35,248 nucleotides of DNA from a virus (lineage: Duplodnaviria; Heunggongvirae; Uroviricota; Caudoviricetes). The stretch is taken from positions 1 through 35,248 of IMG/VR virus record IMGVR_UViG_2563366961_000002, one strand, 5' to 3'. The notes under the pieces were generated by a model. The model was not told where the DNA came from and made no database searches. It worked only from the letters and a program-made list of their open reading frames with translations. Positions 11,787 to 13,486 of this stretch are shown here, piece by piece. A program made the position numbers and the translations under genes. Positions within the stretch are counted from its first letter, which is position 1; every line of letters begins with the position of its first letter.

Positions 11787-12095
11787 TGACCAGTACGCGC
11801 GCGAGGGGTATCAGTTGCAAAATTTTTTGCAACTGCGTCCGACCAGTACGCACACGATGGCGGGGGATACCATAAAACTGTTCTCTACATGAGACAGAGT
11901 GGTGGTGATGTGTTGATTATCGGCGTATATGCGCACAGGACGCGCTATGACGATGTTTTATGCGGGTACACCAATCACATGTATCTGGTGTGATAAATCG
12001 CGTTACATGACCTCTCATGTTGTGCTGGTGGTTATCACGACTTTCTGAATCTGGCCTTTGCCTGATATTTTGCGACAAGTACGCGCGCGTAGCAT
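11787..12095. repeat. cluster of GACMAGTACGCGCGCG motifs plus a near-perfect palindrome
   Basis: Motif at 11787-11805, 11841-11856, 12074-12095; CAGTTGCAAAATTTTTTGCAACTG at 11812-11835. Confidence 0.5.
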
Positions 12096-12117
12096 CGACA
12101 GCATACACATTGGATAT

Positions 12118-12339
12118 TCATTTTGTGACCAATGCGATAAGTAGCGGGATAAGAATTGATAAAATCAACAGGCCGATGATCCACTTTTGATTTTCACTGG
12201 CCTTATCTCTATTTTCATCAATCTTATCAATAATTCGACGCTCCAATCCGTGCATATCACCGCGAATGGCAATCATCTCATTGCGAACATCAGGGAAGTG
12301 GTTGGCTTGATGTTCAATGTGTGGCGTTCTGCCTTTCAT
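12118..12339 (-). CDS. small protein with C-terminal TM anchor (XhlA-like architecture)
   Basis: ATG preceded by GAGGA; coiled-coil-like N-terminus, C-terminus WIIGLLILSILIPLLIALVTK. Confidence 0.5.
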   Translation of the reverse strand: MKGRTPHIEHQANHFPDVRNEMIAIRGDMHGLERRIIDKIDENRDKASENQKWIIGLLILSILIPLLIALVTK

Positions 12340-12418
12340 ATCTGATCCTCACCTATCGTCACTACCTGCTGGTGTATAAAGGTATTGGCCCAAGCAACTT
12401 TCCAATGGGCACTCATGT

Positions 12419-12874
12419 TTATACGCTGACCTTACAATCAATCACTGCTTTTAGCTTTTCAGCATTGCTTCCCTGACGCTTCCACGCGCTGTAAATATCT
12501 TTATCCCACGCTTTACCAGCTTTTGTTTGATAGCCTGCTTCATTGATCCGTTCAGCTATCACACGCCCATTATCAAATCCCTGTTGGATGGTATCGGCAA
12601 TGATCTTTATAACTGCCGTTTCGTTATATGGTTTTGGTGGGATGTTCGGCTTTCCGGCAATAAGCGACGCAGCGGCTTTTTCCATGCGCTCCACCAGCCC
12701 AAGCATTCGTGAATCAATAGACTTTTCCGGCTGCCCCAGCTTCATGCGAATCGCATCAACAAGCCAGGAGGTTTTATCTCCTCCAGAAGCGAGAACAGAC
12801 CGATTAAACTCATCCTGCAATTCAGATGGGATGCGGAACGCGACCAGATTAGATTTGCTCATTGCAAAGACCAT
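12419..12874 (-). CDS. putative RHH-like DNA-binding protein (about 147-151 aa)
   Basis: N-terminus SNLVAFRIPSELQDEFNRSVL resembles RHH beta-strand/helix; lies next to iteron module B; start could be ATG 12874 or 12862. Confidence 0.45.
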   Translation of the reverse strand: MVFAMSKSNLVAFRIPSELQDEFNRSVLASGGDKTSWLVDAIRMKLGQPEKSIDSRMLGLVERMEKAAASLIAGKPNIPPKPYNETAVIKIIADTIQQGFDNGRVIAERINEAGYQTKAGKAWDKDIYSAWKRQGSNAEKLKAVIDCKVSV

Positions 12875-12974
12875 ATCAGTGAGTAATATCCATACAGTAT
12901 ACCACTGTATAACACTGTTATACGCTCAAATATCAGCCAGAAAATAACGGACCAATCACAAATCTATCGCTGTG

Positions 12975-13100
12975 TTGTTGGTTCAGAGCTGGGCTGTGTT
13001 GGTTCAAAATGAGTTGATGTTGGTTCAATATTTCAGAAAAAACACAATAAAAACAACAATCTTTACAAATTGAACCAACTGAACCAACTGAACCAACACC
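12975..13100. repeat. iteron origin-like module B, inverted relative to module A
   Basis: 3 spaced GTTGGTTCA at 12977-13029, AT-rich spacer, 3 tandem TGAACCAAC at 13070-13096; mirror image of 5464-5580. Confidence 0.7.
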
Positions 13101-13133
13101 TTTTTGCTTATCTATATAATCTGAGAGGCAGAA

Positions 13134-13415
13134 ATGATAAGGGACAGGAAAGCTGAAGAGCTGGAGTCAAAAGGGCTATACCGGAGAGCTGCCGCACGAT
13201 GGATGGAAGTCATGCTGTTATGCACCGAGGACGATGATCGGGAATGGATAAAGCGCCGCCGTGAAACGTGTCTGGAGAACGTGAAGCGCCCGCCCGTGAA
13301 GGTTGAGGAATTTGGCGACCTGCATAAAGCTGTTACCGAAACGCAACACCGCATGGGGATAGCGCAACCGAACGGTAACGCCTTCCGGTTAAATGGCGGC
13401 AAGAGGCAAAGGTAG
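13134..13415 (+). CDS. PerC-family transcriptional regulator (Pch-like)
   Basis: GAGAGG upstream; ELESKGLYRRAAARWMEVM...REWIKRRRETCL matches the PerC signature as recalled. Confidence 0.65.
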   Translation: MIRDRKAEELESKGLYRRAAARWMEVMLLCTEDDDREWIKRRRETCLENVKRPPVKVEEFGDLHKAVTETQHRMGIAQPNGNAFRLNGGKRQR

Positions 13416-13462
13416 ACCACCAGAGGGAAATCATCCTCTGGCTGGCGGTTTCTGGTATTTCG

Positions 13463-13486
13463 GGACAAGTACGCGCGCGCGTAGCA
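13463..13486. repeat. fourth copy of the GACAAGTACGCGCGCGTAGCA motif
   Basis: GGGACAAGTACGCGCGCGCGTAGCAC, with upstream flank similar to the 12074 copy. Confidence 0.5.

Follow-up and report, generated by a model that had tools for sequence, protein, structure and literature searches.

The 35,248-nt stretch of DNA analysed here (IMG/VR virus record IMGVR_UViG_2563366961_000002; referred to as the window) corresponds to an Escherichia coli chromosomal integrative island at thrW (tRNA-Thr), and harbours four copies of a short non-coding motif, which lies at cassette borders and has a coding counterpart in Sf6-type small-terminase genes (terS). In the complete sister copy of the island at thrW, an integrase, a helix-turn-helix (HTH) protein, an AntA/AntB antirepressor, ash and a TOPRIM/DUF927 primase are followed by homologues of P22-like gp7, gp20 and gp16, a SieA-like membrane gene on the minus strand and motif copies 1–3. 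A small gene, a ribbon-helix-helix (RHH)-like gene, an iteron cluster, the gene for PerC (PF06069) and copy 4 come next, and the cargo beyond copy 4 (PRiA4_ORF3 and others) extends to the right end of the island at ~15131. Sister islands occupy other chromosomal sites, and the family is characterized by an integrase, an AlpA-type HTH protein, an antirepressor, a primase, P22-like ejection genes and PerC. Among the virion and packaging proteins of E. coli phage HK620, only gp7, gp20 and gp16 have matches in the window; this comparison detected no homologue of terS or of the large-terminase gene terL there, and none is annotated in the complete sister island. The motif region is organized as follows.

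11597..12098, plus strand: conserved non-coding segment of ~500 bp holding copies 1–3
11781..11807, plus strand: motif copy 1, ATTTCGTGACCAGTACGCGCGCGAGGG, found by pattern and repeat-family search
11812..11835: 24-bp palindrome CAGTTGCAAAATTTTTTGCAACTG, between copies 1 and 2
11841..11860, plus strand: motif copy 2, GACCAGTACGCACACGATGG, the most diverged, lacking the upstream ATTTYG
12062..12096, plus strand: motif copy 3, CTGATATTTTGCGACAAGTACGCGCGCGTAGCAT, a recurrent homology breakpoint
12099..12463, minus strand: variable cassette 1, directly past copy 3, here with a 73-aa gene at 12118–12339 (minus)
12120..12136, plus strand: possible degenerate fifth copy, ATTTTGTGACCAATGCG, 82% over 17 nt, a weak match that may be due to chance
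12419–12874: RHH-like protein
13134–13415: PerC
13452..13486, plus strand: motif copy 4, CTGGTATTTCGGGACAAGTACGCGCGCGCGTAGCA, beginning 37 nt past the PerC stop codon
13487..15131: cargo from copy 4 to the right end of the island (61-aa open reading frame (ORF), PRiA4_ORF3 protein and 119-aa ORF)

A pattern search of the window with the core GACMAGTACGC identified four matches on the plus strand, starting at 11788, 11841, 12074 and 13464 (0.75 expected; none of 100 shuffled sequences reached four). They are direct copies of ATTTYGNGACMAGTACGCRCRCG, all on the same strand, at the positions that an earlier reading of the DNA letters without database searches (the sequence-only reading) had given. 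The 21-mer GACAAGTACGCGCGCGTAGCA quoted there as the shared unit is exact only at 12074–12094, however, and has no second site in the window with up to three mismatches. Copy 4 reads GACAAGTACGCGCGCGCGTAGCA (13464–13486) with one additional CG, and copies 1 and 2 (GACCAGTACGCGCGCGAGGG and GACCAGTACGCACACGATGG) have only the left ~16 nt in common. The unit continues upstream as ATTTYGNGAC, giving a stretch of 28 nt in which copies 3 and 4 are 89% identical and copy 1 reaches 75%. The similar upstream flank of about 50 bp proposed for copies 3 and 4 was overstated, since beyond 6 nt before the core GAC the resemblance is marginal, an equal score being obtained in 108 of 2000 shuffles. The self-complementary core TACGCGCGCGTA is likewise present in copies 3 and 4 but is not a general property of the repeat, as it is found in those two only. 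The 24-bp palindrome at 11812–11835 is genuine, with a predicted DNA hairpin of −9.7 kcal/mol (z = −4.3); its arms are kept among strains and its centre differs, as in the variants GTTGCAAAAAATTTTGCAAC and GTTGCAAAACTTTTTGCAAC.

The intergenic location of the copies agrees with the RefSeq annotation of an identical genome. An unannotated ORF at 11614–11892 spans copies 1 and 2; having no Pfam match, a marginal PHROG match and frameshifting indels in close relatives, it is best regarded as non-coding or decaying, and we discarded a coding reading of these copies. Searching the region by megablast returned no match in the phage collection and only fragments in the plasmid collection.

Crossovers and cassette borders at the motif

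Natural recombinants are joined inside the motif. In strain EC102 (L004), a precise 286-bp deletion brings the left flank of copy 1 together with the right flank of copy 3, and strain W284 (L278) combines the left flank of copy 1 with the right flank of copy 2 and has lost the palindrome. The island of strain SLK172 (L003) is homologous to the window over 10900–12098 and again over 12464–15125; between 12098 and 12464, SLK172 and many other strains harbour an Abi-family gene in place of the local 73-aa gene. This Abi-gene cassette of ~1.4 kb directly follows copy 3 in other islands and in a P22-like phage. The segment 11597–12098 is 95–100% identical in ~545 E. coli genomes, and most matches among the 546 records matching 11597–12117 stop exactly at 12098, where homology again ends in most records when a 50-nt probe is used.

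The phage in question is a genuine P22-like one, represented by an IMG/VR contig (L099) that encodes Sf6-type terS, terL, portal, gp4, 10, 26, 14, 7, 20 and 16; its motif copies lie in the variable region from gene 16 to the tailspike gene. It shares with the window the DNA of gene 16 (98.5%) and a 509-bp motif segment (96.9%), its homology likewise ends at 12098, and its sequence past copy 3 matches the start of the SLK172 Abi cassette. At the other cassette border, the cargo at 13487–15131 is different or absent in sister islands, and in an island with a different PerC allele (L277) a diverged copy occupies the site corresponding to copy 4, at position 11090 near the right end of that island. 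Two Haemophilus loci (L041 and L043) also diverge right after the motif. These data show that crossovers recur at the motif and that it borders cassettes. The earlier suggestion that the copies could be recombination sites is borne out as an observation, with crossovers inside the motif in EC102 and W284 and homology ending just past copy 3; nothing in the data points to a dedicated site-specific recombinase.

A site-specific recombination site of a cassette system, either integron-like (attC/attI) or a secondary att site of the island integrase, would account for the direct repeats that flank small units, for the precision of the inter-copy deletions, for the bracketing of higBA by two copies in Haemophilus and for the 12–14-bp palindrome of copies 3 and 4, which resembles recombinase core sites. 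We nevertheless consider it improbable. Phage-type integrase domains are encoded by only 2 of 150 neighbouring ORFs (the one checked is P4-type), no other recombinase family is among the 25 most frequent Pfam families shown, and no IntI-type integrase lies beside the array in the annotations of the identical genome and the complete sister island. Furthermore, copies 1 and 2 lack the palindrome, as do most copies of other taxa, the motif has neither attC architecture nor a conserved inverted-repeat structure, and precise deletion between 20-nt direct repeats is possible without a dedicated enzyme.

The same joints, deletions and cassette borders, which make up all direct observations on the copies, would also be expected of a pure boundary (linker) sequence, that is, of functionless terS-like relics that persist and spread only as crossover points for homologous recombination. 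Boundary sequences are an established concept in lambdoid and P22-like phages (PMC3029335), and the GenBank record of Sf6 annotates 'bsq, boundary sequence' features. As in such sequences, the motif lies at junctions of homologous and non-homologous DNA, and the recombinants cross over inside it. What the motif matches, and how widely it is kept, bears on this explanation and is described below.

A coding counterpart in Sf6-type terS and non-coding copies across taxa

The motif consensus spans ~25–30 nt and reads (GAG)TTYGNGAC-MAG-TAC-GCG-CGC-G. In many viral contigs it is found within genes, where it encodes (E)FRDQYARA(RE), or more generally (E)F-R-D-Q/K-Y-A-R-A, and the encoded proteins are Sf6-type small terminases (PF20901 Sf6_terminase, E = 3e-43; phrog_1482). 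Codons 59–65 of the Sf6-type terS of HK620 carry TTCGCGACAAGTACGCG, which matches the motif core at 17 of 17 nt and shares the AAG variant with copies 3 and 4; in IMG/VR, relatives whose protein is 100% identical are common. The HK620 genome contains no motif copy besides the one in terS. In Sf6, a mere ~165 bp separate gene 16 from the tailspike gene, too little for this interval to accommodate the 500-bp motif segment. We take the motif (nt 166–190 of the 423-nt terS gene) to lie just past the HTH part, at the very end of the part encoding the DNA-binding domain.

Codon usage at the motif was compared with that in the rest of the same genes for 41 distinct, diverged Sf6-type terS genes (39–55% protein identity to the reference), which were picked by degenerate peptide patterns and hence without bias on codon choice. 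Four of the amino acids examined showed a preferred codon at the motif, and the third base was free for the fifth.

Tyr: TAC, 39/41 at the motif vs 64/128 elsewhere (p = 3e-8)
Asp: GAC, 27/29 at the motif vs 314/593 elsewhere (p = 5e-6)
Ala: GCG, 22/33 at the motif vs 163/654 elsewhere (p = 1e-6)
Arg: CGC, 23/32 at the motif vs 229/546 elsewhere (p = 8e-4)
Gln: third base free at the motif

The bias is retained in terS genes with a low GC content at third codon positions (TAC in 15/16 vs 15/55), and a column-by-column scan identified D-Q-Y-A-R-A as the densest codon-bias cluster of the gene, with two other conserved Tyr columns being unbiased. The motif stretch of terS is thus constrained at the nucleotide level beyond the needs of the protein. 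Because the codon bias clusters where the non-coding copies match, we infer that terS holds a cis-acting nucleotide element at this place. Judged by sequence, the window repeat reproduces, in non-coding DNA, the ~25 nt of Sf6-type terS that are most conserved. We also considered longer terS relics in the flanks of copies 3 and 4 and rejected this possibility, as the local alignment of these flanks to the upstream sequence of HK620 terS is not significant.

Scanning 185,579 species genomes with TTYGNGACMAGTACGCGCGCG detected 63 loci, and the same scan of IMG/VR detected 46. Among complete E. coli genomes, 559 of 5426 (~10%) have the motif, at 1–5 places each and always in this island/phage family, a count that does not fit a ubiquitous genome repeat family, the outcome that would have spoken against the sequence-only reading. 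The description of the motif as a small repeat element therefore stands as regards a unit of ~25–30 nt at a few places per genome, but not in the sense of a genome-wide repeat family. Its sequence is unlike the REP/BIME, ERIC and BoxC repeats.

At ~50 of the 63 genome loci, the motif is not part of an Sf6-type terS gene. A small number of these matches fall in long unrelated ORFs of GC-rich genomes and possibly arose by chance; the others are non-coding, since stops such as TTT TGA GAC occur in frame and the N position is free. The search pattern included neither GAGT upstream nor (CG)n-GAGG downstream, yet both are conserved, and conservation does not reach beyond ~30 nt. The non-coding loci, none of which has an Sf6-type terS, belong to Enterobacteriaceae, Pasteurellaceae, Alcaligenaceae, Alphaproteobacteria, Acidobacteria, Nitrospinaceae, Saccharibacteria and others; taxa with a non-coding and often multi-copy motif include Haemophilus, Rodentibacter, Marinicella and Alcaligenaceae. 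Further copies within 1 kb number 29 on the same strand, compared with 7.3 expected, and 10 on the opposite strand.

The neighbourhoods that can be annotated are primase-type integrative islands (P4/PICI-like), in which the motif has D5_N/DUF5906 or Prim-Pol primases, AlpA/HTH_17, AntA and a P4-type integrase as neighbours. In Haemophilus, the order is D5_N/DUF5906 primase, AntA, motif, higBA, terminator, motif and variable cargo, the cargo past the second motif being DenV-like in one strain and an ATPase in another. Locus L046 has HTH_17, a Prim-Pol primase, the motif and cargo, in this order; AlpA is found near the motif at L036 and a P4-type integrase at L010, and in Serratia (L034) an RHH homologue and the motif are followed by TGAACCAAC iterons, as in the window. 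A Pfam survey of 150 ORFs near non-coding copies yielded mostly unannotatable ones, with scattered integrase, AAA_25 and DnaB_C matches. In these primase islands, as in the E. coli family and the P22-like phage, the motif sits where conserved DNA gives way to variable cargo.

Individual loci show further arrangements. At L047 (Haemophilus haemolyticus, 7693–7765), one copy lies ~50 nt upstream of a 124-aa ORF, and a second lies 7.1 kb off, past higBA, so that two direct copies bracket an antirepressor–primase module; the 124-aa ORF was dropped as a small-terminase candidate, having no Pfam match. At L029 (an uncultured proteobacterium), L021 and L051, the motif is directly joined by its own reverse complement, for example as ACCAGTACGCGCGCGCG-T-GCGCGCGCGTACTGGT, and the two form a long perfect palindrome that extends the partial one of copies 3 and 4.

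This distribution bears on two regulatory explanations. The sequence-only reading had proposed binding sites for the adjacent regulators, and an operator for the RHH-like protein or PerC would be in keeping with the position of the copies in intergenic DNA beside both genes and with the RHH homologue that adjoins a copy in Serratia. The proposal is unsupported by the wider survey, and we regard it as very unlikely: motif loci occur in many phyla, and the neighbourhoods inspected, which covered Haemophilus, Rodentibacter, Marinicella, Alcaligenaceae and many further taxa, showed no gene of the PerC or RHH type. In addition, a P22-like phage carries the motif, and terS genes contain it as coding sequence. 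As an operator of the RHH protein or of the primase, the TGAACCAAC iterons at 12977–13097 are the better candidate.

An RNA-level element, either an antisense RNA to the terS mRNA of a helper phage or a structured RNA or terminator, is extremely unlikely. Copies 1–3 lie between two minus-strand genes, and a minus-strand transcript through them would be antisense to terS mRNA; however, copy 4 and the copies of Haemophilus and L046 are co-oriented with their flanking genes and hence sense. The motif does not fold stably (z = −1.4, +0.8 and −1.2), a scan at the copies returned no promoter or terminator consensus, and Rfam 15 has no family at the motif (11400–14100, E ≤ 5), giving two spurious miRNA matches elsewhere. 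In addition, the N position varies freely without a compensating change.

The boundary explanation introduced above is also affected. A relic should decay, yet non-coding DNA of taxa as far apart as Enterobacteriaceae and Acidobacteria retains the same ~25 nt, with sharp limits, and the flanks past the core have no significant terS ancestry. The same bases are synonymously constrained in terS, which argues for selection on the DNA sequence itself. On balance, we consider it unlikely that the motif is a boundary sequence and nothing else.

A candidate packaging signal

We favour, with a probability of roughly 0.45, the reading that the motif is the recognition site of the Sf6-type small terminase of a helper phage, that is, a pac-type signal or part of one. 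This reading draws on the location of pac inside the small-terminase gene of P22-like phages (PMC8022706), on the Sf6 pac, which reportedly maps to the stretch of gene 1 coding for the DNA-binding domain (Leavitt et al. 2013), and on a precedent for pac mimicry by satellites, which was demonstrated for PLE and ICP1 (bioRxiv 10.1101/2024.04.22.590561). A helper, for instance HK620 or Sf6, would recognize the motif through its small terminase, and a satellite that keeps copies of it would have its DNA bound, cut and packaged by the helper terminase. Such a packaging function would hold the motif constant while its surroundings diverge. As the sole homology between otherwise unrelated phages and islands, the motif would then serve as a crossover point for host or phage recombinases, possibly assisted by terminase-made ends. 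Crossover at a frozen site would place copies on either side of cargo cassettes (Abi, HigBA, SieA-like and others) and would also yield inter-copy deletions and a build-up of copies.

Several points weigh against a packaging role. The satellite context is documented for only ~10 loci, the neighbours being mostly unannotatable ORFs, and helper dependence of the island family is assumed. The sister islands of W284 and L112 have no recognisable copy 4, and the P22-like phage carries copies 1–3 ~14 kb from its own terS, where they are not needed as a packaging site. The motif, which we take to be at the edge of the sequence coding for the DNA-binding domain, may fall outside the mapped Sf6 pac interval. 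Finally, site binding by pac-type small terminases in vitro is reported to be weak and largely sequence-independent (PMC9611059).

The proposed arrangement can be compared with four known systems. As in PLE and ICP1 (Boyd & Seed, bioRxiv 10.1101/2024.04.22.590561), an element without terminase genes, here a putative satellite, has a short non-coding match to the packaging region of its putative helper, of 14 bp between PLE and ICP1 and of 17 bp to HK620 terS here, conserved across each satellite family. Unlike in PLE, whose helper pac is intergenic, the helper-side sequence lies inside the terS coding region, its role here being predicted from sequence; the motif is also multi-copy, spread across many phyla and located at cassette-exchange junctions. 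The pac sites of P22-like phages (22 bp in P22 gene 3; Sf6 gene 1) resemble it in lying within terS, where the motif adjoins the HTH-coding part and is constrained at the nucleotide level. In these phages the cis site is in terS, so that specificity domain and site travel together (PMC8022706). The motif is unrelated in sequence to P22 pac (AGAGAAGATTTATCTGAAGTCG, PMC9611059).

Like the boundary sequences of lambdoid and P22-like phages (Susskind & Botstein; Clark et al. 2001), the motif is a short conserved sequence at homology transitions with crossovers inside it. It is not among the Sf6 bsq features in the 12 kb inspected (1–3000, including terS, and 11000–20000) and, unlike boundary sequences, it matches a constrained terS coding element and is common to satellites and distant phyla. 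The islands also resemble P4-like satellites with their accessory hotspots beside cos, as variable defence cargo (Abi, toxin–antitoxin, SieA-like) has a fixed place in a primase-type island and adjoins a putative packaging site. In P4, an accessory-gene hotspot lies next to cos. The border in the islands studied here is a defined ~25-nt repeat, unlike the conserved flanking genes of the P4-like hotspot.

A broader proposal holds that the ~25-bp GAC-MAR-TAC-GCG-CGC element in terS would be the universal pac site of the very widespread Sf6-type small-terminase family, captured independently by primase-type satellites of Proteobacteria, Acidobacteria and other phyla as non-coding, multi-copy sites for packaging hijack and for the exchange of defence and other cargo cassettes between phages and satellites. 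It would amount to a terminase-linked system of cassette exchange that spans phyla. This generalization strikes us as somewhat doubtful. Satellite pac mimicry and phage boundary sequences are kinds of phenomena already known; new are a site embedded in a coding region with measurable synonymous constraint, its phylum-wide spread, its occurrence in multiple copies and its coincidence with cargo-cassette borders. Our confidence in the descriptive findings is high.

If the packaging reading is correct, it would specify in sequence terms the packaging site used by a small-terminase family that is among the most widespread, recognition of DNA by small terminases having been hard to pin down biochemically so far. 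Non-coding motif copies would become genomic markers of satellites that predict the terminase type of the helper, including in phyla without studied satellites. The reading would also offer a mechanism by which anti-phage cargo (Abi, toxin–antitoxin and superinfection exclusion) moves between phages and satellites, through crossover at a functionally frozen site. Under the minimal reading, the motif is still a well-documented conserved boundary sequence with natural recombinants.

Further features of the island and the window

The region 6203–11596 encodes the gp7, gp20 and gp16 ejection homologues followed by the SieA-like membrane protein, and the ejection genes are also found in sister islands at other chromosomal sites. 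Ejection-protein genes are an unusual cargo for an element that otherwise resembles primase-type satellites. An IS1 at 8080–8847 (InsA/InsB ORFs at 8095–8792, minus strand) breaks the end of the gp20-like gene, which is uninterrupted in sister islands.

The 9-mer TGAACCAAC forms two clusters, at 5466–5576 and 12977–13097, with 12 exact copies (0.3 expected). Each cluster consists of three minus-strand copies followed by three plus-strand copies; one lies just past the primase gene and the other between the RHH-like gene and PerC. The pair resembles the ori/crr iteron pair bound by the P4 alpha primase.

Chi sites (GCTGGTGG) number 16 in the window compared with 0.8 expected, and 14 of them, on both strands, fall within the first 15 kb, which is the island. 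The resulting density of roughly one per kb is several times the E. coli average. This excess suggests selection for protection from RecBCD. A Chi site 45 nt upstream of copy 3 was rejected as a special feature, the whole island being Chi-rich.

Outside the island, a stretch of ~2.5 kb (~15894–18456) is devoid of coding sequences in the RefSeq annotation of the identical genome and sits in a second mobile element with capsid, baseplate and integrase genes. At the Rfam gathering threshold, the window contains two RNA families only, both away from the motif. One is the IS009 RNA (RF02111, 193 bits) at 29675–29875 on the plus strand, beside yagU and outside the island. The other is the C4 antisense RNA (RF01695, 79.9 bits, E = 3e-14) at 175–262 on the plus strand, at the left edge of the window. 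C4 is the immunity RNA of the P1/P7 type, and this island also has ash and antirepressor genes.

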